Made by a program: the position numbers and the translations under genes. From Squalus acanthias (Eukaryota), in assembly GCA_030390025.1 (NCBI GenBank), contig CM059432.1, forward strand, positions 72,542,001-72,606,000: a DNA stretch of 64,000 bases, written 5' to 3'. The stretch's first letter is position 1; each line of letters starts with the position of its first letter. This document shows, one piece after another, positions 39,236 through 57,890 of this stretch. The notes beneath the pieces are model-generated. The model saw only the letters and a list, made by a program, of their open reading frames with translations, made no database searches and was not told the DNA's origin.

Positions 39236-41325
39236 TGTAAGGGGGGGCGTGTCTCAGACGGTGCTGGTGCGAGGTTAGGTCTTCGTTGCCTATACTATTG
39301 CTTGCTCTGGTCTCCGGCCAGCCTTTTTGCAATAAGCACCTGTGAGTGGTTCGATCCACTCGCCCTTACGGTTCTAACACTGGACTTAGGTGCAGGGAGC
39401 AGTAATGCAGAGAAAAACTCAAATAGACCCGGTTGAATAGTACGAAATGGAAATCTTTATTGCATGGCGTCTAAAATCATGAAATACATGTCATAGGCGC
39501 AAATCAAAGAGAGTACAAGTATACATACATTCATAAAGTTTGGTCTATGGAAATGGAGAACACACGGCACATCATAGAAAGGGGAACACATTATACCTTA
39601 ACCTTATTAAAAACCACCCTCCCTTAACATTATCTACACTACATCTAGATTTGTAGGATCGGAAAACATGCTCACCACTCATGTTACTTCGGAGATTTTA
39701 AAGTGGGGCACTCAGCTCGTTTCGCTGCAGCGCCTGACTGTCACGCGTTTGGAAGGGTCTCTGCACCCCACTTGTTTACTTTCGCTGCTGCGAAAAGCAG
39801 GCCAGACTCCCTGTTGTCATGAAGAACTCGACGGAACTCGGATAAAATTCAAAGAAGAGTCTTCCTGTGTTCGACACAGGTTATAGAAACATAGAATCTA
39901 GGAGCAGGAGTAGGCCATTCGGCCCGTCAAGCCTGCTCCACCATTCAATACGATCATGGCTGATCATCCAAGTCCAGTACCCTGTCCCTGCTTTAATCCC
40001 CACAGTACACATATCCCACCCTACCCCTGTAACCCCACATATTTAATTCCCCCTAACATATCCCATCCTATCCCCATAACCCCACATATTTAATCCCCCC
40101 CTAACACTAAGGGTCAATTTATCATAGCCAAATCAACCTAACCCGCACATTTTTGGACTGTGGGAGGAAACCGGAGCACCCGGAGGAAACCCACACAGAC
40201 ACGGGGAGAATGTGCAAACTCCACACAGACAGTCACCCGAGGTCAGATTCGAACCCGGGTCCCTGGCGCTGTGAGGCACCAGTGCTAACCACTATGCCAC
40301 CGTGTTGGTAGAACTCAAAGAAGAGTCCTGTATTTATATTTTCGGGCGCAGTCGGGGTTCACTGACCGTGGCGGCACGTGGATTTTCTTCTCGTCTTCTT
40401 CTCGTCTTCTTCTCCTCGGGCCTCCGGGTCCAGACACCGTTTACCGACACTCGGGATGGTGTACCCTGTTACTTGCCCTTGTCGGGGCGGCTCGTACCGA
40501 TTGAGCTCCACCCAACACTTGAATAACCGACCAGTGCGGCTAAGAGTCAAGAGTCAACAAAGTCCAGAGAGAAAATCAAGAGGCTGCCCGTCCAGGAGAG
40601 CGGCACCAGAGGATAAGAGTTCAGCCTGAGTCAAGAGTCAGCAGAGATAAGAGTCAAGAGTTCGGCAAGCGAATAAGAGAGCGATGGACATTTGTTCTCT
40701 ATAGTTATAGTGATGTGTCCTCTTATCTCCCGCTCAAATCTTAATGTTTGTCCTTTGTGTAATATTGGCGCTCAAAACTCCCAGCATGGGGCGGTTGTCT
40801 TCTTTAACGGGTTTCGGTAGCACCTGAAACTGGCCAACTATCCGTTAATGTTTTCCCCATTGTTGACCCAGCCAGGATGTGTATGAATCGTCTCCCTGAC
40901 TGGTTTTGGGGGCCCCCGAATACTTGCTTAATCACCCGTCGATGTCTCTCTCATTGTAGAGCCGGGGGGTTGTTTGTGTATTGATGTGTCTGGATGGGCC
41001 TTCGATTGCCCAGTACAATGATCCTTACTGTGCATAGGAAAACGATTCCAGCACTTATATCTTTGCTATTGTTTCAAATGCAAACGGGTTGCATCCTGTC
41101 TTTATCAGTGTTTACCGAGTATGATCCAATCTTATACTAAATGTATATTCAACGCCATTTTGTCTGCCCACTGTGTTTCTGGAAGCTTCTGCCACGATGC
41201 TCGGCGGCCATTTTACAGGCTTCTGTGTCCTTTACTATCAGGACAGCATTTCGTTTAATAAAACTGATCAAACGAATCTGCTTGTCTTGTGTTATTTTGA
41301 ATCGCGATAATTGCGAAACTTTACA
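39236..41325 (-). repeat. 3' LTR (contains a 418-bp SINE insertion)
   Basis: Matches the 5' LTR apart from scattered substitutions and the SINE; preceded by the PPT. Confidence 0.97.
39887..40304 (-). mobile_element. V-SINE (HE1-like) inserted in the 3' LTR
   Basis: tRNA head (TGGCATAGTGG, GGTTCGAATC), V-domain GGTTTCCTCCGGGTGCTCCGGTTTCCTCCCAC, CR1-type tail; absent from the 5' LTR. Confidence 0.9.
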
Positions 41326-41337
41326 GTCCCTCCTGTT
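41326..41337 (-). promoter_or_regulatory. Polypurine tract
   Basis: AACAGGAGGGAC immediately before the 3' LTR TGT. Confidence 0.75.
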
Positions 41338-43059
41338 GATGCGAATAACTCCGTTTATCGTATCAATTAAAAATGTTGGTGAGCAAAATTATCCCGATTC
41401 TCCACATCCAAACACTCCCGGTAATTAAACTATCCATGGCCTCCATGCAGTCCTCATTTCCCAGAGAAAATTACATTGTCTAACTTGGACAAATCGTAGG
41501 CAGCATTGCCTTTAAACTTACACTGCGTATACGCCTTCCAGGTGCGAAAGGCCGATGCCTCTCGCACCACCTGTATATGCATGTTTTATTATAAAAGGAA
41601 AAATAATCAAACCAACTGTTTTAAAAATACAAAAGTTACAAACTTAATCACAAATACTCATATCTAACAACAACTACAAAAACACACATGGAAAAATGGA
41701 GCGGCGTCATCCTGGCCGTTTACGCGGTACTTTCCTCGTTCACGCGCACGTAACGTTCTCTCCACTCCCCTGTGTTCTCCTGCCTTGTGAGGCGTTTGCC
41801 TCTCTTGCAGTGTACGACCAATAGGTACACTACAATTACAACTTGACACACTACCAAAATGTGGGAGGCTATCCTGATCCAGGACGGGACTTCAATATTA
41901 GTGAACAGATCCCACCACGGTGGGGTTACTATGTCTAATATCTCTGCCCCTGTCTCTACAGTCTTTTGTTCCAGGGTGTAAAAATGTTTCTGTGATACCA
42001 TGACGGCTTTTAAAATCTTGGTGAGGTGTTCAGGGAGAGGGGGAATGATGTACCCGAAATGCGCGATGAATCGCTGCAAGTCTGTGAAATTCTCTTTTAC
42101 TGTGAGGTGAACAGTGGATGGTTCAGGGATCGGGACAATTCGCTGCTGTGCCACTTGAACTTCAGCCCTGGGTTTGAAACAGAAATTGCTGTCACTCACC
42201 GGACACCGGCTGTGCTGTCCATGCTGGTATAACAACAGAAAACGCTGGAAAAACTCAGCAGGCCAGGCAGCATCCGTGGAGAGAGAAAGAGAGTTGACGT
42301 TTCAGGTCGATGACCTTTCATCAGAACTGGGAAGAGCTGGAAATCAAATAGATTTAAGGCCAGGGTAAAGCTGGGAAAAGGGGGAGGGGATAAAGGAACA
42401 AAGGAGGAGATGAAGAGACATTAAGAGACATTAAGAGATATGCGAGGCTAGAGGTGGTGTTAATGTGACAGATTAAGGCTGAATGAAGTGTGAAATCCAC
42501 TGGCAGAATGAAGGACAGCTGCCAGCTTCAAGGAGGAAAAAAAAGGTGGGGGGGACAAATAAAAGGGTGGATAAAATAAAATATAAATGTGATTGGAGCT
42601 GAGGTTATGATCTAAAATTGTTGAACTCGATATTGAGTCCAGAGGGCTGTAGCGTGCCTAAACGAAAGATGAGGTGCTGTTCCTCGAGCTTACGCTGAGC
42701 TTCCGTGGAACAGTGTAATAGGCCGAGGACGGTGAGGTCAGAGTGGGAGTGAAGCGGTGAATTAAAGTGACAGGCCACCGGGAGCTCGGGGTCCCCCTTA
42801 CGGACTGAACGGAGGTGTTCCGCAAAGCGGTCACCCAATCTGCGTTTGGTCTCCCCAATGTAGAGGAGTCCACATCGTGAGCAGCGAATACAGTATACTA
42901 AATTGCAGGAAGTACAAGTAAATCGCTGTTTCACCTGGAAGGGGTGTTTGGGGCCCTGGACAGTGGGAAGAGGGGAGGTATAAGGGCATGTGTTGCATCT
43001 CCTGCGCGTGCACGGGAAGGTGCCGGGCGAAGGGGAAGGGGTGCTGGGGGTGACTAACA

Positions 43060-43965
43060 TTGACTAACATTCACTACAAGCCCACCGACTCCCACAGCTA
43101 CCTGGACTACACTTCCTCCCACCCCGCCTCCTGTAAGGACTCTATTCCATTCTCCCAGTTTCTCCGTCTCCGCCGCATCTGCTCTGATGATGCCACCTTC
43201 CATACCAGTGCTTCCGACATGTCTTCCTTTTTCCTCAACCGAGGATTCCCCTCTACCGTGGTCGACACGGCCCTCGACCGTGTCCGTTCTATCTCCCGCA
43301 CATCTGCCCTCACCCCTGCCCCTCCCTCCCGGAACCACGATAGGGTTCCCCTTGTCCTCACCTTTCACCCCACCAGCCTCCACATTCAACGGATCATCCT
43401 CCGCCATTTCCGCCACCTCCAGCGTGATCCCACCACCAAACACATCTTCCCCTCACCTCCCCTTTCAGCATTCCGCAGGGACCGCTCCCTCCGCGACACC
43501 CTAGTCCACTCCTCTACCACCCCCAGCACCCCTTCCCCTTCGCCCGGCACCTTCCCGTGCACGCGCAGGAGATGCAACACATGCCCTTATACCTCCCCTC
43601 TTCCCACTGTCCAGGGCCCCAAACACCCCTTCCAGGTGAAACAGCGATTTACTTGTACTTCCTGCAATTTAGTATACTGTATTCGCTGCTCACGATGTGG
43701 ACTCCTCTACATTGGGGAGACCAAACGCAGATTGGGTGACCGCTTTGCGGAACACCTCCGTTCAGTCCGTAAGGGGGACCCCGAGCTCCCGGTGGCCTGT
43801 CACTTTAATTCACCGCTTCACTCCCACTCTGACCTCACCGTCCTCGGCCTATTACACTGTTCCACGGAAGCTCAGCGTAAGCTCGAGGAACAGCACCTCA
43901 TCTTTCGTTTAGGCACGCTACAGCCCTCTGGACTCAATATCGAGTTCAACAATTTTAGATCATAA
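43060..43965 (+). CDS. Penelope RT thumb + GIY-YIG endonuclease (5'-truncated)
   Basis: HYKPTD..YLDYTSSHP, SQFLRLRRICS, VYCIRC..C..LYIGET..RFAEH, GLN. Confidence 0.92.
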   Translation: MTNIHYKPTDSHSYLDYTSSHPASCKDSIPFSQFLRLRRICSDDATFHTSASDMSSFFLNRGFPSTVVDTALDRVRSISRTSALTPAPPSRNHDRVPLVLTFHPTSLHIQRIILRHFRHLQRDPTTKHIFPSPPLSAFRRDRSLRDTLVHSSTTPSTPSPSPGTFPCTRRRCNTCPYTSPLPTVQGPKHPFQVKQRFTCTSCNLVYCIRCSRCGLLYIGETKRRLGDRFAEHLRSVRKGDPELPVACHFNSPLHSHSDLTVLGLLHCSTEAQRKLEEQHLIFRLGTLQPSGLNIEFNNFRS

Positions 43966-44241
43966 CCTCAGCTCCAATCACATTTATATTTTATTTTATC
44001 CACCCTTTTATTTGTCCCCCCCACCTTTTTTTTCCTCCTTGAAGCTGGCAGCTGTCCTTCATTCTGCCAGTGGATTTCACACTTCATTCAGCCTTAATCT
44101 GTCACATTAACACCACCTCTAGCCTCGCATATCTCTTAATGTCTCTTAATGTCTCTTCATCTCCTCCTTTGTTCCTTTATCCCCTCCCCCTTTTCCCAGC
44201 TTTACCCTGGCCTTAAATCTATTTGATTTCCAGCTCTTCCC

Positions 44242-44278
44242 AGTTCTGATGAAAGGTCATCGACCTGAAACGTCAACT
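44242..44278 (+). ncRNA. Minimal hammerhead ribozyme in the Penelope terminal repeat (mirror copy at 42292-42328 on -)
   Basis: AGTT-CTGATGA-A-AGGTC-ATC-GACCT-GAAAC-GTC-AACT: core, stem I and stem II all present. Confidence 0.85.
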
Positions 44279-46509
44279 CTCTTTCTCTCTCCACGGATGC
44301 TGCCTGGCCTGCTGAGTTTTTCCAGCGTTTTCTGTTGTTATTTCGGATTTCCAGCATCCGCAGTATTTTGCTATCGTATTACTGTCCATGCTGGTAGTGT
44401 GGCGCTGCAGTGGTAACGCAATACGTTCCACCCCCTATGTATGCCACCTGTGGGGGCACATGATCTTGTGTCATTGCTTCCATGGTGCAATTCATGGGCT
44501 TTGCGCCAGCCGTTCTGAACCCGCATTGTGGTGTTAAAAAGGCATTCAAGTGCTGGGGACACAGTATGATGTGTGCTCCCTGGCCACGACAACCCGAAAG
44601 GTCGGTACCTGTCATCGTTTGCTCCCAGCGGATGACGTAAGGTGGGACCGCTGCGTAGCGAATGTGGGCTCCCCCCTGAATGACACCAATGTTCTCCACC
44701 CGGTACACTGGGGCGGGCTTTGCTGTGTCGCCCAACACCGGCATCCGTACTACTATCCCCATGATAGTGTGATTTGACCGTCCGCAGTCCACGGGGACTG
44801 GGTATGCCTCTGAGGCTAGCCTGAGCTGGCACGGGCTTAATGCGTTCTGAAAAGGGTGGAGCGCCTGCAGGTGTTTGTTACTTATCCAGGACGGGACCAA
44901 ACCTTGTTTTAAATCCTCCAAATTACTGCGGCCCTCGCCCAGTAACCACGCCCTGTATAATACGCACACCTCGTTCTGCGCAGCTTGATCGGATGCATTC
45001 CGATCTTCCCTGATCAGGGCATTTACCGTTCTCGCATGCTTCTCCAGCTCTGCTATAATCTCTTTTAAGTGTAGTGTCATGGCCTGGTCCTCATGTAACT
45101 CAGACCCTACTACCTTGTTCTCGTTTGTGAGGATGCTTTTTAACTGTGTTTTTAAACCGTTGATCTGGGTCTGCAGCTCCACATTGTCTAGAGCGTTGAC
45201 CACAGATGTTCCCGTATTAAAAGCAGTGAACACATCGTTCACAACACCCCTTCTTTGTCTCCCCACCTGACCCAAAACTTCGTGTGGTGTGGTGTATAAG
45301 CTTGTTTTGTCAACCTCTGCAAAATCAAACTCATAAAATTGCCTGAGCATGTTTGTTAACAGGACCTGGTACAATTGTTCCGTTTCTTTGGGGCACCACT
45401 CTGGTAAATGCACCTCGGTGAGATTTAGAATCACCGAGGCCACCGCGTAATGTATCCCTTGATATAGTATCTGATCTGTTGGCACCAGTACCAGACCATT
45501 CCCGGGCCCCTTAGTGGTTTTAGGGCACCCTTCCTCCTGAGCCAAAGCCACCGGAGTTGTGGGCGGAGACTTGCGTGGGCGTGTGATGAGTTCAGTGGCG
45601 TTTACCGGGATCGGGGAGAATGGAGCTCCGCACCCCCTGGTGCTGACATCCCACCTCATCCCTTTCCCGTCATCCTGCCACAGTCGTAGGAAAATTATGG
45701 ATATACCCTTGGGGCAAACATACTTCGATCCCCACATACACACATATATTCCCTCATCCGGTTCCCACCATTTGTCCCAACAGACTTTCAATTGTCCGTT
45801 AGTCCCCGTAATTGTCCGATGGGTATTGTTACCCAATCGCTCCCACTCGACCGAGGAATTTCTCATAGTCTTGCTTAATTTCCGTAACCACCACCATCGG
45901 CTCAATGGGACCTTCCCATTGCATGTCAAACAAATCCTTTTGCCGACGGTGACGCTGATTCTGGGTGCAATGATCCTCACCCTGGGACACAGTAAAGAAG
46001 TCTCTTTGTAGGCAAATCCGGATGCGCTGGAGTATTCCGTCGAATTCGTTCCCAGCCATCCCGGCCACCTTCCCTTGTGGAAATAAGTGGCGGTTTCCTC
46101 AGCCTCTCGCTCCCCGGTCCCATCCGTCGCGATGGGGGCCGTGTCCCCGGAGCAACCGAACACAACGACATCCTTGGTGAGGCCCCGATAGGCCAATCCA
46201 TATCCGATCGTTGCGAGCACTATCAGAATCCTTTCCATCTCTCCTGGTTCCTGTGATCAGATAAAATGATGTAGCCAGCCTCCCAAGAGTCTCTGGCTTT
46301 TGTGAAGGGTGAGCGGGTCCCTTGACCTCGTCTCACGTAAAAAGACATGTATGCTGGATAGACTTTAACTATTCCTATCACTAACTCCCATCATTTTACC
46401 ATTTACTTTTAAAATCAAACTACAAACTTACCAAACTAAAAAAAAACTATAAACTTAAACTTATCCTAAACTTAACTGTACAGCGCCGCCCGTTCCCAGG
46501 GCGGCCTAC

Positions 46510-49500
46510 CTAAATTCTGCGAAGGCTGCCACGAGCTTTTGCTAGTGGCGGGGGGGCACTGACCCCTTCCTTTGATCTGCCGCAGCCTGTCGCTGCTGCG
46601 CTGGGACTGGGATCTCCCTGGGCTGCCTTGAACTTACGCCTGGGGGTGTACGGGGGATTTGACCACGACTTCCTGGGCTGGGGTTTCCGACTTGACCTAC
46701 GGAGGGCTACCTTGGGCAAGATCTCCAGGGCCGACGGACCGGGAACCGAGACTTCCACCGTCACGGCCTGTGGTCCCACCACAGCCGCCGGCTCTGTCTC
46801 CCCTGGCTCCGCCCCCCTGGGCTCGGGATCTGCGGTTTCCGACTCCACCTTACTTGCTTCCCTAGTAAGTGGAACTCCACTCGCAATCCCTATCTCCCCT
46901 ATGCTTGGGTCGAGGGCGGAACCTCCGTCCTCCGACCCCACCACCTCTCCGATCGGGTCACTACCTTGGTTGAGCTCTCCGAGCTCTTCCTCATCTGAAT
47001 CCCAAGACCAAGAAAAGATCCTACACTTTTCCAAAATGTCTTCTCCCCTCACGGAGGCTGCTTTACCGGCCTGTGTGCCCTGCGGTTCTATCCGGGGCTG
47101 AGCGTCCCCACTCGCAGTTTTGGCCCCTGTGATTGGCCCCTGTGCACCCGGTTTATACAGCTTGCACTGGTTAATGTGGAACCATTTCGTGCGCCGGGGT
47201 ACCTTTACGGCATACACCATGGGACTCGCCTTATCTACAATACTGTAGGGTCCCATATACAGTGGTTCCAAACTCCCTACTCTGGCATAGTTCCTAACCA
47301 TGACCTGATCTCCGACTTCCCACTCCTGCTTCTTACGGGGTTCCAGCAACAGGCGATTGCCCTGCTGCTGTCTTCCCATGTTCCCAGCCGCCTGCTCGTA
47401 AACCTGCTTCAGGCGCTCCAAGAGGGTCTGGACAAACTTGTCCCGTTTCACCTCTTGGAGCTAACCCTCAGTGAGCACCGGGGCCAGTACATGGGTGGGG
47501 GTTCGCATGATCCTCCCAGTCATCACCTCGTACGGGGAATACCCCGTACTCTTTGACTGGTTGGCCCGGATTCCCATGAGGACTAGAGGCAGAACCTCCG
47601 CCCATTTTTGGGGCGAGTTCATAGTCTCTTTCCTCGGCTTTTCCTTGAGGGTCTGGTTCATGCGTTCAACAATCCCTGATGACTGGGGATTGTGCGCTAC
47701 GTGCCACTTCCCTTCAATGCCCAAAAGCATGAGGGTGTTCTGCATCACCTGGCCGGTGAAATAACTCCCTTGGTCTGACTCCACGAAACGGGGGAGTCCC
47801 CACCGCGAGAACACTTCCCGGACCAAGATCTTGGCAGTACCCAGCGCCGTAGCTGTTCTACAGGGGAAGGCTTCTACCCACTTGGAAAACACATCCACCA
47901 AGACGAGGCAGTATTTGTAGCCTCCCTGGGTGGTGGGCAGGGGCCCTATGTAATCGATCTGTATCGACTGCCATGGTCCCTCCACCCTCCTGATGTGCCC
48001 CATGTGCACTTTCCATTTCTGGGGGTCTGGGTTGTTTGCAGCGCACACAAGACAGCTTGCACAGAACTCGCGGACCTGCTCTCTGAGTCCCGGCCACCAT
48101 CCCGCCTGCTCTACCCGTTGCCAGGTAACCTCAGGCCCGGGGTGTCCTGCCCCTGGCCCCTCATGAGCCAACTGGAGGAATTCCCTCCTGTGCTGCTGCG
48201 GCACAACCCACTGTTCCTCGCGGAACAGCATGCCTTCTTTAACGGAGAGGGTTGCCGTACTGTACGGGCCCTCTACCTGCTTGCCCTCAGTAATCGTTCT
48301 GAGAACTGCTTTTAGGGCGGGATCCTGGTTCTGGACGGTCTTAAGGTCTAGGGGCAGTGCTACCCTGGTGTTCCCGGGATTCCCTTCCCTGCCTTGGATC
48401 GCTGCCACGGGTCCGGGTCCATAGGGGTCCCAGAAAATGCCGTTACGGGCACCCTCCCTGGCTAGCGCATCCGTCTGCTGGTTGCCCTCCCCGCGGGGTT
48501 CTGTGGAGGAGTGAGCCTTCACCTTATGGATGAAAATCTCCCCTTCCTCCCCTACTGCTGCTAGGATCTTTTCCAGCAAGGGCTTCACCGTTAAAGGTCG
48601 CCCGTCCGCGGAGGTGTATCCACGGCGGGACCAAATGGCCAGGTATTCCGTACACGAATTGCACGTAAACATACTGTCCGAACAAATCGTGTATGGGGTT
48701 GGGAAGATTTCTGGGTGGGTAACGACGTACGCCACCGTAGACAGCTCAGCCTGCTGTGCGCTCATCGTGCTGGGGAGTTTAATTGCCAAGGCAAGGTTTG
48801 CCGCAGGGTCATAAACTCCACACCCTGTGAGTCGTTCGCCAGCGGACACTGTGCTGGAACCATCAACATAAATCTCGCGACCTGTGGGATGTATCCCGGC
48901 CCGCAAACCTATGTTGACCTCCCACACCCCTTCCACCGAACACTGGTGGGCTGTTCCGGGGTATACCAGGTTGGCCGCGAGCTTGGGCTCGCAAAGACCT
49001 TTAACCCTAAGATCCATCTGGGAAAGGAGAAGGGTCCAGCGCGCAATGCGAGCGCTGCTTACGGTCCCATCCTTAATCCTCCCATCCAGAAGCATCTTGG
49101 TTGGCGTGTGATGGGTGAAGAGAGTGATGGGAGAGAGCCCTGTGAAGATCGCTGATCTTTTCACAGCCCAATGCGTGGCTAAAAGATGCCTTTCGCAATT
49201 GGAAAAACTCCTCTCCACATCCGTTAACACCCTGGATGAATAGACAACCAGCCTCAGCTTGCCGTGACGCTCTTGGAGCAGCACAGCGCTCAAGCTGTCT
49301 CCGCTGGCAGCTACCTCCAGGAAAAACTCCTCCCCCCCAATCTATGGCCCCTAAAGCTGGTGCGGTCTGCAGATCCCTTTTTAACTTCTCGAATGCTGCC
49401 TGACAACCCTCGTCCCAAGACCACTCCACTCCCTTATGGAGGAGTCGGAGCAGCGGAGCTGCTGTGGCCGCATAGTCCTCGATGAAGTCTCTACAGTAAC

Positions 49501-50824
49501 CGGTCAGTCCCAGAAAGGACCTCACACCCGTTATGGTGTTGGGAATCGGTAACTCCTGCACCGACTCCCTCCTAGCCTTATCTATGGCTCTTTCCCCAGC
49601 GCGAATGGTCAGACCCAGGAATTTTACTTCCTGCTGACCGATACGTGCTTTCTTAGGGTTAACTTTAAAACCCTTCCTCGCTAGCAGCTCCAATAACTCG
49701 GCTAGCAGTGGTCCATGCTCCTCCCTTGAGTCCGTGAACAGGAGCAAATCATCCACGTACTGCACTATCTGATTGGGCTGACTAAACTCCTTTAAACTTC
49801 CTGCCATACACTGATGGAAAATACTGGGGCTGTTGTGGAAACCCTGTGGCAAACAGTTCCATGTGTACTGTTGTCCTTTGAAAGTAAAGGCAAACTTGTA
49901 CTGGTCCTCTCGCTGCAGCGGGATGGACCAAAAACCGTTCGAGATATCCAGCACCGTGAACGTGGTCGCGGACGCTGGGATACTCCCTATTAGGTCAGCA
50001 ACTGCTGCTACTGTGGGCGCGCAGGCGGGGATGTTACTGTTAAGGACTCTGTAGTCCACCGTGGCCCTCCACGAATTATCCGGCTTCCTTACCGGCCATA
50101 ACGGGGAGTTCACGTGTGTGGCTATCGGCCTCAACACACCCTGCTGCACCAATGAGGACATTGCTGTCTCCATGTCGGGTTCTGCTTCTTTGGGGAAGTT
50201 ATACTGCTTTTGGGGCCGGGTCATGGGGTCCCCGTCTATGCTGACCTCAAACCCGGTAACCCTCCCACAATCGTGCTTGTGGGTTGCAAACGCGTGCATA
50301 TTATCTGACACGTACGTTTGCATGTCCGTTGGGACATCCGCGACCATAAGCCCGAGGTCGTAACCTCCGGATGGCTTCATGGTACACAGGGCCCCTTTAC
50401 CTTCCTTCCCTGGGATTACAACTACCTTGCCTTTCCCACCCTTGGCTCCCCAGAGACAATGATTCCTAAGGTCCACGAGGATCCCGTGTTCCGCTAGGAG
50501 ATCCGATCCGAGGATACCTCTGCCACCCCCCTCTTGCCATTTCATCAGTATGCACTTCCATGTGGTGTGGAGTGCTCCTAAATGAATGGAGAGCAGAATG
50601 GAGAACGCGCCAGCCTGCTCTTTTCCCGTGAACCCCGCTAATGTGAATGGGACCTTGGTAGACAGTGGTGAGTCAAAGGGGCTATCTGTATGAATCACGG
50701 TGCATGAAGCGCCCGTGTCCAACAAGTAACTACCCTTCTGCTTCTCCACCTCCATCTCCACCAGGGGTCGCTTCCACGCATCATAGCTGAGCGGACACAG
50801 GTAAACGGGCTGCGCAGGCTTTAG
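46510..50824 (-). pseudogene. pol: pol: protease, RT, tether, RNase H, integrase (one frameshift, one stop)
   Basis: LLDTGAS; LPQG, YVDD; IYVDGS..QAEL..SDS..KVKAH; HHCC; IDY..SDQG..VERMN; GPY; frameshift in the G-run near 49335; TAG at 47461. Confidence 0.95.
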
Positions 50825-51211
50825 TCATTGGGTACCGGTGGACGGGGTTGTGGCATCTGTGGGGCCGGTAGCGACTGCCACTTTCCTGTGCGAAATCATA
50901 AGGGACGGCATGGCTCCCAACATTGATTCTATCGCATCGGGATGGATAGGCACACCAGCTCCTTTCTCGGAGACAGGCGCTTGGGTTCGGACCGCGGGAG
51001 CTCTGTCCCTGGAGTCCTTCCAGGGATTCCTGCAGTTTTTACGCCAGTGACCTGTCTTCCCGCACCCGTAACAAACACCACTGGTTTGTGGGGCGCGATT
51101 TCCCTCCTGATGCCACTCTTTCTGAGCCGGAGCTGCGGGCTTTGCCTCATGCACCTTTCCCTTAAGGGGACGCGCTCCCATGCTCCTAGTGTTCCGATAC
51201 CCTATGGTGAG

Positions 51212-51340
51212 CTTCACCTGAGGAAGGAGCGATAGTTCCGAAAGCTTGTGATTTCAAATAAAACTGTTGGACTATAACCTGGTGTTGTGCGACCTCTCAA
51301 TTTTGTCCACCCCAGTCCAACACCGGCATCTCCGCATCAC
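51212..51340 (+). mobile_element. Short Penelope-derived insertion with minimal hammerhead (51215-51250) inside gag
   Basis: CAC-CTGAGGA-A-GGAGC-GATA-GTTCC-GAAAGCTT-GTG; flanked by GAG repeats; homologous to the 21297 and 57775 copies. Confidence 0.85.
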
Positions 51341-52761
51341 GAGTCGATTTAGGACAGACTCCTCCGTTGTGGCGGGGTTAGTGGGATCAAACCACGCTCT
51401 GGCCTGCTCCCTGACGGCTGGCAAGCTGTTGGCTACTAGACACCTGAGCCAATGAGCTTTCCCGGCGCCGTCCAAGCGGTGGTGCGCTGGCGCACCTGGG
51501 CAGCTACGCTGGTATACTGGCCACAGTCTGTCGGCGAAAACCTTCGGGGGTTCTCCCTCCATCTGTACAGTCTGACTCAATCTGACGAACGGACCTTCGT
51601 CATCCGCCCCTAACACTTCTAGGACCTCGTCCCGTAACTCCCCATAGGTTTTATTTCCCTTCTTGCTCTCGTCGGAGAGACACTGAAGGATCGAGCTATC
51701 TAAAGAGAACAGCAACATTTTGGTCTTTTCCTCATCGTCGCAACCATTAATTGCTGCGGTCTGTTCTACTTCTCTAAAATGTACGGAAGGGTCATCTGAC
51801 TCGGACAGCTTCCGTACATGGCTAATCATTGCTCTCAGCTGGTGTGAGCTGTGGGGCAATACAAGTTGGTTCAGGATATCCCCGTCTGCCCCATTGTCCG
51901 CATTCGGGCCTCTCTTGTGACCTCGGAGCGGACACATCGGTCCCGGTCTCAACGCTACCTCCGGGGATTGTCCTACCTCGGGAACCTTCTTCTCTATTTC
52001 CACCACTTCCTCCCTTACCCAGGTTGCCGAATAGCTGGGTGGCGCGGAGGGCACAGTGGCAGATACCTCTTCTGCCTTTTCCGGTAGGGATTTTGGGAAT
52101 TCCCTACATACCTGTGGCTGGCTCGCTGACGGGTTGATGAGACACACCAAGCCGTTTGCCTTACTCAGGGCCTCTCTTAGGTTCCCTATCTCCCTCTGGC
52201 AAACACTGTGGTCGGCTCCCTCATGCCTATCCTCGAGGGCCATCTTGTATGCCGCCCTAACTCCCTTCAAGCTTTCTTTCTGGGCTTTTATCTGGTTAGC
52301 TAGGCGGATACACCGTTCTCTAATTCTACCCTCGTTTAATTTTGCTTCCTTGACCTGACATTCTAGGTAATCAATTTTAGCCTCATGGTGGTTGGCTACT
52401 ATTTGGCGTTCCTGATGTAACGTATTCAATGATGCAATGAGTTTTTGTCCTCCCGTGACCTTTTCCTCCATCTCAACTTCCAATTCCCTGATCTGAGCTG
52501 CATGTGCTGCAATGGCCTGGTCCGAAAGTTGGACTTGCTTCTTGTAGCACATCAGCCAGACCGCTTTCTCTACCGACTTCTTATGTTCTTTACTGCCTGT
52601 CCATTTGATGGCGGCGTCTAGCGGACGCTTATCCATCAGTAGGTCACTTATCCACTTTTTGGTTAAGTTAACCTTCCCAAACACATAGTCGGCTACCCTC
52701 TCATCCATCACATTTCGCCTATTCAAACCAGGGTCTAAAACATTACTCTCCTGCTGCCAAT

Positions 52762-52779
52762 GTCCTGCCGCGGTCGCCA
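52762..52779 (-). promoter_or_regulatory. Primer-binding site, tRNA-Arg(TCG)-type
   Basis: TGGCGACCGCGGCAGGAC, complementary to the recalled vertebrate tRNA-Arg-TCG 3' end GTCCTGCCGCGGTCG-CCA; 5 nt from the LTR. Confidence 0.85.
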
Positions 52780-52784
52780 TTTTC

Positions 52785-54457
52785 TGTAAGGGGGGGCGTG
52801 TCTCAGACGGTGCTGGTGCGAGGTTAGGCCTTCGTTGCCTATACTATTGCTTGCTCTGGTCTCCGGCCAGCCTTTTTGCAATAAGCACCTGTGAGTGGTT
52901 CGACCCACTCGCCCTTACGGTTCTAACACTGGACTTAGGTGCAGGGAGCAGTAATGCAGAGAAAAACTCAAATAGACCCGGTTGAATAGTACGAAATGGA
53001 AATCTTTATTGCATGGCATCTAAAATCATGAAATACATGTCATAAGTGCAAATCAAAGAGAGTACAAGTATACATACATTCATAAAGCTTGGTCTATGGA
53101 AATGGAGAACACACGGCACATCGTAGAAAGAGGAACACATTATACCTTAACCTTATTAAAAACCACCCTCCCTTAACATTACCTACACTATGTCTAGATT
53201 TGTAGGATCGGAAAACATGCTCACCACTCGTGTTACTTCGGAGATTTTAAAGTGGGACACTCAGCTCGTTTCGCTGCAGCGCCTGACTGTCACGTGTTTG
53301 GAAGGGTCTCTGCACCCCACTTGTTTACTTTCGCTGCTGCGAAAAGCAGGCCAGACTCCCTGTTGCCATGAAGAACTCGACGGAACTCGGATAAAATTCA
53401 AAGAAGAGTCTTCCTGTGTTCGACACAGGTTGTAGTCGGTAGAACTCAAAGAAGAGTCCTGTATTTATATTTTCGGGCGTGGTCGGGGTTCACTGACCGT
53501 GGCGGCACGTGGATTTTCTTCTCGTCTTCTTCTCGTCTTCTTCTCCTCGGGCCTCCGGGTCCAGACACCGTTTACCGACACTCGGGATGGTGTACCCTGT
53601 TACTTGCCCTTGTCGGGGCGGCTCGTACCGATTGAGCTCCACCCAACACTTGAATAACCGACCAGTGCGGCTAAGAGTCAAGAGTCAACAAAGTCCAGAG
53701 AGAAAATCAAGAGGCTGCCCGTCCAGGAGAGCGGTACCAGAGGATAAGAGTTCAGCCTGAGTCAAGAGTCAGCAGAGATAAGAGTCAAGAGTTCGGCAAG
53801 CGAATAAGAGAGCGATGGACATTTGTTCTCTATAGTTATAGTGATGTGTCCTCTTATCTCCCGCTCAAATCTTAATGTTTGTCCTTTGTGTAATATTGGC
53901 GCTCAAAACTCCCAGCATGGGGCGGTTGTCTTCTTTAACGGGTTTCGGTAGCACCTGAAACTGGCCAACTATCCGTTAATGTTTTCCCCATTGTTGACCC
54001 AGCCAGGATGTGTATGAATCGTCTCCCTGACTGGTTTTGGGGGCCCCCGAATACTTGCTTAATCACCCGTCGATGTCTCTCTCATTGTAGGGCCGGGGGG
54101 GGTGTTTGTGTATTGATGTGTCTGGATGGGCCTTTGATTGCCCAGTACAATGATCCTTACTGTGCATAGGAAAACGATTCCAGCACTTATATCTTTGCTA
54201 TTGTTTCAAATGCAAACGGGTTGCATCCTGTCTTTATCAGTGTTTAGTGAGTATGATCCAATCTTATACTAAATGTATATTCAACGCCATTTTGTCTGCC
54301 CACTGTGTTTCTGGAAGCTTCTGCCACGATGCTCGGTGGCCATTTTACAGGCTTCTGTGTCCTTTACTATCAGGACAGCATTTCGTTTAATAAAACTGAC
54401 CAAACGAATCTGCTTCTCTTGTGTTATTTTGAATCGCGATAATTGCGAAACTTTACA
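52785..54457 (-). repeat. 5' LTR (1673 bp)
   Basis: Direct repeat of 39236-41325; followed on the - strand by the PBS. Confidence 0.97.
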
Positions 54458-57570: not shown

Positions 57571-57774
57571 TTTAACATATTTATTTCTTCACTTTAAAAT
57601 AAATATACTTTATCTCGACATGCAAGTGTTACCATTGTAATGCAGTTGCAGATTGTAATTTGCATGGGAATATATATTATTTGATATTCTACTCATCCAT
57701 TGAAACAGGATTTCTGTGGGATTACTTGCATTGTCCTAGGCCTTTGTGGGATTTTCCTGGCCTTGTACAACTGA

Positions 57775-57890
57775 GAGGTCGCACAACACCAGGTTATAGT
57801 CCAACAGTTTTATTTGAAATCACAAGCTTTCGGAACTATCGCTCCTTCCTCAGGTGAAGTAAATTGGATACAGAATCGTCAGAGCATATA
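57775..57890 (-). mobile_element. Short Penelope-derived insertion with hammerhead (57821-57856)
   Basis: 13-bp TSD CTTGTACAACTGA (57762-57774, 57899-57911); core identical to the gag copy. Confidence 0.85.

Follow-up and report, generated by a model that had tools for sequence, protein, structure and literature searches.

A probable UGA-CUA readthrough junction between gag and pol in a provirus of Squalus acanthias

How is Pol made in a provirus whose gag ends in a stop codon while pol continues behind it in the same frame? The question is raised by a 64,000-nucleotide stretch of the Squalus acanthias genome (the window), in which inspection of the minus strand shows gag ending in CAA TGA CTA AAG, with the junction CAA-TGA-CTA at 50822..50830 and the stop codon at 50827-50825. 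The gag zinc-knuckle frame (51253-50828) and the protease-RT frame (50824-49076), which stays open for 583 codons after the stop, are one frame, and Pfam places zf-CCHC upstream of the stop and RVP and RVT_1 downstream of it. Frame map and domains thereby bear out the arrangement described in the original prediction, and the peptide quoted there is correct. Its statement that no frameshift is needed also holds, since the frame is the same across the stop, no slippery heptamer is printed across 50700-51000, and the remaining two frames are closed on either side of the junction. The stop context belongs to the Beier-Grimm type II hexamers (UGACUA or UGACGG), and its description as an alphavirus signal agrees with the accessible part of a 2026 review, where UGACUA is listed as a type II hexamer for alphaviruses and a dicistrovirus and for no retrovirus (PMC13517186). 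Between 41328 and 52781 of the minus strand, TGACTA occurs once among 151 TGA trinucleotides, namely at the junction stop. On the evidence of sequence comparison, we consider it very probable that the junction is a programmed UGA readthrough site for gag-pol.

The junction lies in a provirus with the layout LTR-gag-pol-env-LTR (39236-54457, minus strand, as are its parts below), whose TG...CA ends and target duplication place it within the Retroviridae. The 5' LTR (TG...CA; 52785..54457) is flanked by the 4-bp target duplication CAAC and shows 29 mismatches over 1677 aligned positions to the 3' LTR (39236..41325), which is preceded by a purine tract and interrupted by an insertion (about 39887-40303). 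The ATG of gag (52780) starts 5 nt past the 5' LTR and overlaps a primer-binding-site-like stretch beginning with TGG (52762..52780, within 52762-52785), to which we assign its role by inference; the skate Gag N-terminus is alike, so the overlap may be a family trait. The gag gene (50828..52780) encodes an N-terminal coiled-coil-like region, a capsid-like region and one CCHC knuckle, and is disrupted by a host repeat of about 91 bp (51212..51302; 99% like 57769-57859) that introduces stops. The N-terminal third of Gag (52150-52550) resembles a long coiled coil and recalls the smc-like ORF of lokiretroviruses, but is fused to Gag. In pol (46510..50824), Pfam supports the order PR-RT-tether-RNase H-IN with a dual RNase H, and the gene is broken by a frameshift near 49340 and by a stop codon (47461-47463). 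The env gene (41720..46238) encodes a basic cleavage site, RQRR, and a transmembrane-like tail; Env has no Pfam match and its structure model (pLDDT 34) was unusable, and its atlas features score 0.94 to the Fusion_gly cluster and 0.95 to the Baculo_F/Gypsy cluster. An insertion encoding GIY-YIG, putatively Penelope-like, interrupts env on the plus strand (42229..44341); its 824-bp perfect inverted repeats are 100% identical, marking a very young element. With lesions in gag, pol and env, this provirus copy is dead and cannot itself produce Gag-Pol.

The place at which the protease begins bears on how the living ancestors of this copy could have translated Pol. From the stop to the first Met (50755) there are 23 codons with no in-frame ATG (50756..50824), of which residues 16-23 match HIV protease residues 5-12; the alignment of residues 16-46 past the stop to HIV-1 protease 5-35 is gap-free (single-domain E about 0.001-0.01). 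The first Met, residue 24, corresponds to HIV PR position 13, so the first 12 positions of the protease would be missing from a protein started there. The ATG-free stretch and the HIV protease alignment fit a Gag-Pol readthrough fusion, and fit a separate start poorly. The stretch also carries VYLCPL, similar to a PMCPL motif inside Gag, and such a motif may be a protease cleavage site.

A separate start is what a foamy-like strategy would require, with pol translated from its own spliced mRNA (acceptor near 50788, ATG at 50755) and the UGA serving as the ordinary gag stop. There is indeed a pyrimidine-rich AG at 50788, the in-frame ATG at 50755 has a good context, the relative P0001 (83% identical) has Met at the same place, and the RT takes no fixed place among the deep retroviral branches. 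However, a first Met inside the protease fold argues against this strategy, as a start at HIV PR position 13 loses the N-terminal strand and the RPLV motif. Out-of-frame ATGs at 50784 and 50781 precede the in-frame one, and snakehead-like and coelacanth relatives have Val in place of this Met. In five foamy loci that were compared, the catalytic Asp follows the pol Met by more than 20 codons and gag lies outside the pol frame, whereas here pol shares the gag frame and a CCHC knuckle is present, unlike in the Spumaretrovirinae. Separate expression of this kind therefore appears very unlikely.

If readthrough is programmed, the stop should recur in other copies and relatives, while a sense codon there, such as a CGA lost by CpG decay, would mark the TGA as a nonsense mutation in a once-fused gag-pol, as the original prediction pointed out. 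No sense codon emerged among the Gag relatives, which have a common stop register, and the variants listed include none at the stop. In three of the four members of a skate cluster (P0121, P0125, P0126) and in the Logan protein P0122, Gag ends in Gln 12-13 residues past a shared motif, as in the window, and the residues between motif and Gln vary among the window, skate and Logan relatives. The fourth skate member, P0124, is a short divergent model, and P0136, the fifth full-length relative, has its Gag end at a similar distance, but in Leu. These same-register Gags are 45-60% identical to that of the window, a degree of divergence that speaks against decay in a single copy; protein ends reveal a stop and not which stop codon.

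Contigs from four runs, out of 22 listed (organisms A-D from 3 studies; 647, 277, 239 and 93 contigs), point the same way. No variant falls inside 50805-50838 among the 40 of 146 variant rows listed, which presumably are those with the highest share, so that this result concerns majority changes at the stop; a minority sense codon may be among the 106 further rows, and to this extent they favour the mutation. Private changes of the window copy (e.g. at 50804, 50747 and 50711) stand at about 95-100% in all four runs, and none of them is at the stop. A loose end of the contigs at 50812, X1, shows an in-register CAA TGA CTG followed by different codons and represents a divergent subfamily (4 contigs of median length 11, agreement 0.81, with the TGA supported by the longest ones only). 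Two more loose ends, X7 and X10, show gag-side divergence extending as far as the junction. In the contigs, small indels at 50880-50888 compensate one another, and 16 of the 19 listed pol variants are synonymous, including both that lie between the stop and the first Met. Gag ends and the contigs, as far as listed, thus share the stop position, with CAA-TGA-CTG in X1.

The further lesions of the window copy would suit a nonsense mutation, and so would the coelacanth gene model P0002 (XP_064407972.1), which passes from a Gag-like region into the protease and carries Gln in place of the stop, be this a real sense codon or a model artefact. A fusion of CCHC knuckle and protease is found in 0 of the first 47 Pol matches; the 13 proteins with such a fusion are low-ranking Pol matches that lack the second RNase H. 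The observed/expected ratio of CpG still amounts to 0.67, and the stop is placed where related retroviruses carry their readthrough codon. That the stop is not private decay follows from the same-register Gag ends, the absence of a listed majority change in the contigs and the CAA-TGA-CTG of the divergent subfamily. Judged by these comparisons, the nonsense mutation seems largely refuted, and we regard it as extremely improbable.

The wider family setting shows how ordinary a stop at this place is. We searched 38 retroviral loci and detected a protease motif in 24. In 21 of these, the catalytic Asp is preceded at a distance of 27-54 codons (36 in the window) by an in-frame stop, and an ORF of at least 119 codons leads up to that stop in the same frame; L002, L032 and L037 lack this layout. 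The stop is UAG in 17 of the 21 loci and UGA in 4, the latter probably representing one element. The junction of L035 reads UGA-AGA. In four ERV-L-like loci, L006-L009, a gag-like ORF of 576 codons is separated from pol by an in-frame UGA-AGG, at about 2000-2750. Gamma-, epsilon-, snakehead-like and class III retroviruses normally end gag with an in-frame stop, and the accessible part of PMC1224870 describes suppression of the stop behind gag in gamma-, epsilon- and snakehead retroviruses. The accessible text of the 2026 review gives UGA junctions for SSSV (UGAAGA), ZFERV (UGACGA) and RMEV (UGAAGU), divides retroviral readthrough into type III (UAG) and a few unclassified UGA cases, and calls the signals outside gammaretroviruses unverified and unclear (PMC13517186); that of PMC8278194 gives UGA-CAG for XtERV-S. 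The rarity of a gag-UGA-pol order implied by the original prediction was therefore overstated, given a stop here in 21 of 24 loci and published UGA junctions, including UGA-C, in fish and frog retroviruses.

Whether RNA structure assists the stop is less clear from the folding results. The stem CUGCGCA...UGCGUGG named in the original prediction is possible on paper, yet folding gives it a pair probability of 0.03-0.04 with 65 nt of context and of 0.00 with 100-200 nt, and the downstream 150 nt fold no better than shuffled sequences (z -0.19). When 220-300 nt are folded, a window length picked after a first duplex had been seen, the prediction is instead a single stem-loop that extends from +9 to +219 relative to the stop (50606..50816, minus strand); most of its basal pairs have probabilities of 0.8-0.96, and z is -2.39. 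The stem-loop begins after an 8-nt spacer and uses the CUGCGCA 5' arm with a distant partner. Its window ranks fifth of 23 along the element, where spans over 200 nt are common, and of ten listed variants three keep a pair, three break one and four are unpaired; X1, the divergent subfamily, has a different sequence between +4 and +12 as well. We regard this long stem-loop as a candidate suggested by folding and unexceptional for the element.

Two other structures were dropped. A long-range duplex from +5 to +213, in the best 2.4% of 208 background positions, has pair probabilities of at most 0.08 and both variants inside it break pairs. A hairpin spanning roughly +86 to +150 scores best among 40 windows (z -3.2), but is too distant to act alone, and one pair of it is broken in other copies. 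A pseudoknot scan that recovers the known 12-pair pseudoknot in L029 found none of MLV strength at the junction, its one weak candidate having 7 Watson-Crick and 3 G-U pairs, and the type III combination of UAG-G with an H-type pseudoknot, as in gammaretroviruses, is not present. Elsewhere in pol, two 220-nt windows (50165-50384 and 49505-49724, minus strand) fold better than the junction, with z -4.3 and -3.7.

We propose that most ribosomes would terminate at the UGA and release Gag, while a few percent would decode it with a near-cognate tRNA and continue into Gag-Pol, from which the protease could release itself at a site just past the stop. The CUA context would aid this readthrough and the long downstream stem-loop possibly too. 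According to the part of PMC3159437 available, UGA-CUA alone gives about 2% readthrough in cells, as studied for Sindbis virus. Of the original proposal that Pol is made by UGA readthrough, the core gains from the comparison, through the same-register stops and the layout of 21 of 24 loci, and the named stem and the implied rarity fall away.

Ribosomes might also pass the stop by another route, through termination and reinitiation, a non-AUG start just past the stop, or selenocysteine decoding. Such a bypass would be compatible with the presence of CTG and GTG among the 23 codons and with a long stem-loop close to the UGA. However, a Pol that is not fused to Gag needs a separate route into the particle. 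Selenocysteine is disfavoured in addition by relatives with UAG, which is not selenocysteine-capable, at the same place and by the lack of any Rfam match within 50500-51400. We hold these routes, taken together, to be very unlikely, and return to readthrough of the UGA as the preferred explanation.

Snakehead retrovirus, together with clade Huo and class III ERVs, is grouped among the closest known systems. We take it to be L024 on the basis of the UAGGGC junction (PMC13517186) and of genome length. L024 resembles the window in its in-frame gag stop, which precedes the protease Asp by 32 codons, in having a single CCHC knuckle and in a comparable PL...RP motif where the protease begins; unlike the window, it has UAG-GGC in place of UGA-CUA and no Gag or Env similarity in tblastn. 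MoMLV suppresses a stop at the same gag-pol place, but with UAG-G and an H-type pseudoknot. As far as the accessible sources go, the epsilon-related SSSV, ZFERV and RMEV (PMC13517186) and XtERV-S, which has an ERV-L-type gag-pol (PMC8278194), also have an in-frame UGA between gag and pol; none of them has UGA-CUA, and their readthrough is assumed and not experimental. The elephant shark CmiERV of scaffold 324 reads CCA CAA TGA CTC in frame between CCHC knuckle and protease in our by-eye translation of the available PMC4422223 sequence, but belongs to a different, epsilon-like lineage II and has UGA-CUC; the available text leaves the junction without remark. Its Gag ends in Pro-Gln, as do the skate Gags (PMC4422223). 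Alphaviruses such as Sindbis and chikungunya have the identical hexamer and, as in the prediction for the window, a stem-loop after it, the 8-nt spacer here being reminiscent of alphavirus cassettes (PMC3159437); they are an unrelated family, and their stem spans about 125-180 nt versus about 210 nt predicted here without covariation support.

The mechanism is thus ordinary for this part of the retrovirus tree and does not change the view of retroviral Pol expression. What appears new is the exact UGA-CUA hexamer in a retrovirus, a modest addition; in the literature covered, largely outside subscription papers, no retrovirus or retrotransposon with UGA-CUA was found, and only the review and XtERV-S surfaced. 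It is conceivable, although we would give it only a minor chance, that an undescribed shark-and-ray lineage swapped the UAG-G of its relatives for a complete alphavirus-type cassette (UGA-CUA, 8-nt spacer, stem-loop of about 210 nt), converging on a host leaky-stop context, and combined it with an F-like envelope yet is not a lokiretrovirus. If this were true, the CAA-UGA-CU of an unrelated shark ERV would also point to such convergence. Finding precisely this type II hexamer in a retrovirus would mean that one and the same gag-pol junction is able to change from one signal type to another, and the junction, as a short cassette, is easily testable.

Sequence relationships indicate that the element is probably an endogenous retrovirus of cartilaginous fishes. 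The only named sequences close to it are a Gag from skate (60%) and an Env fragment from sawshark (63% along 144 residues); for Pol, coelacanth and frogs come next (43-45%), the best exogenous Pol match is L024 (31%), and a scan of viral contigs with a single protein gave no match. The RT groups with retroviruses apart from Ty3/gypsy with a 100/100 split in a 32-row tree in which Loki rows are absent, and window RT and P0001 lie in an open basal fork of the RT trees, outside any supported clade with snakehead retrovirus or ERV-L. Identity with lokiretroviruses was our first reading and was dropped, as the Loki proteases in the PMC7947760 supplement look different by eye, both from the window's protease region and, for Loki-Rca, from that of the bullfrog relative P0005. 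Lokiretroviruses are not reported from cartilaginous fishes; the window shares with them a dual RNase H, a coiled-coil-like stretch ahead of the capsid and, to go by its atlas features, possibly an Env with paramyxo/pneumovirus F-like features (PMC7947760). The element would then combine an F-like envelope, as suggested by these atlas features, with a protease that looks unlike that of Loki.
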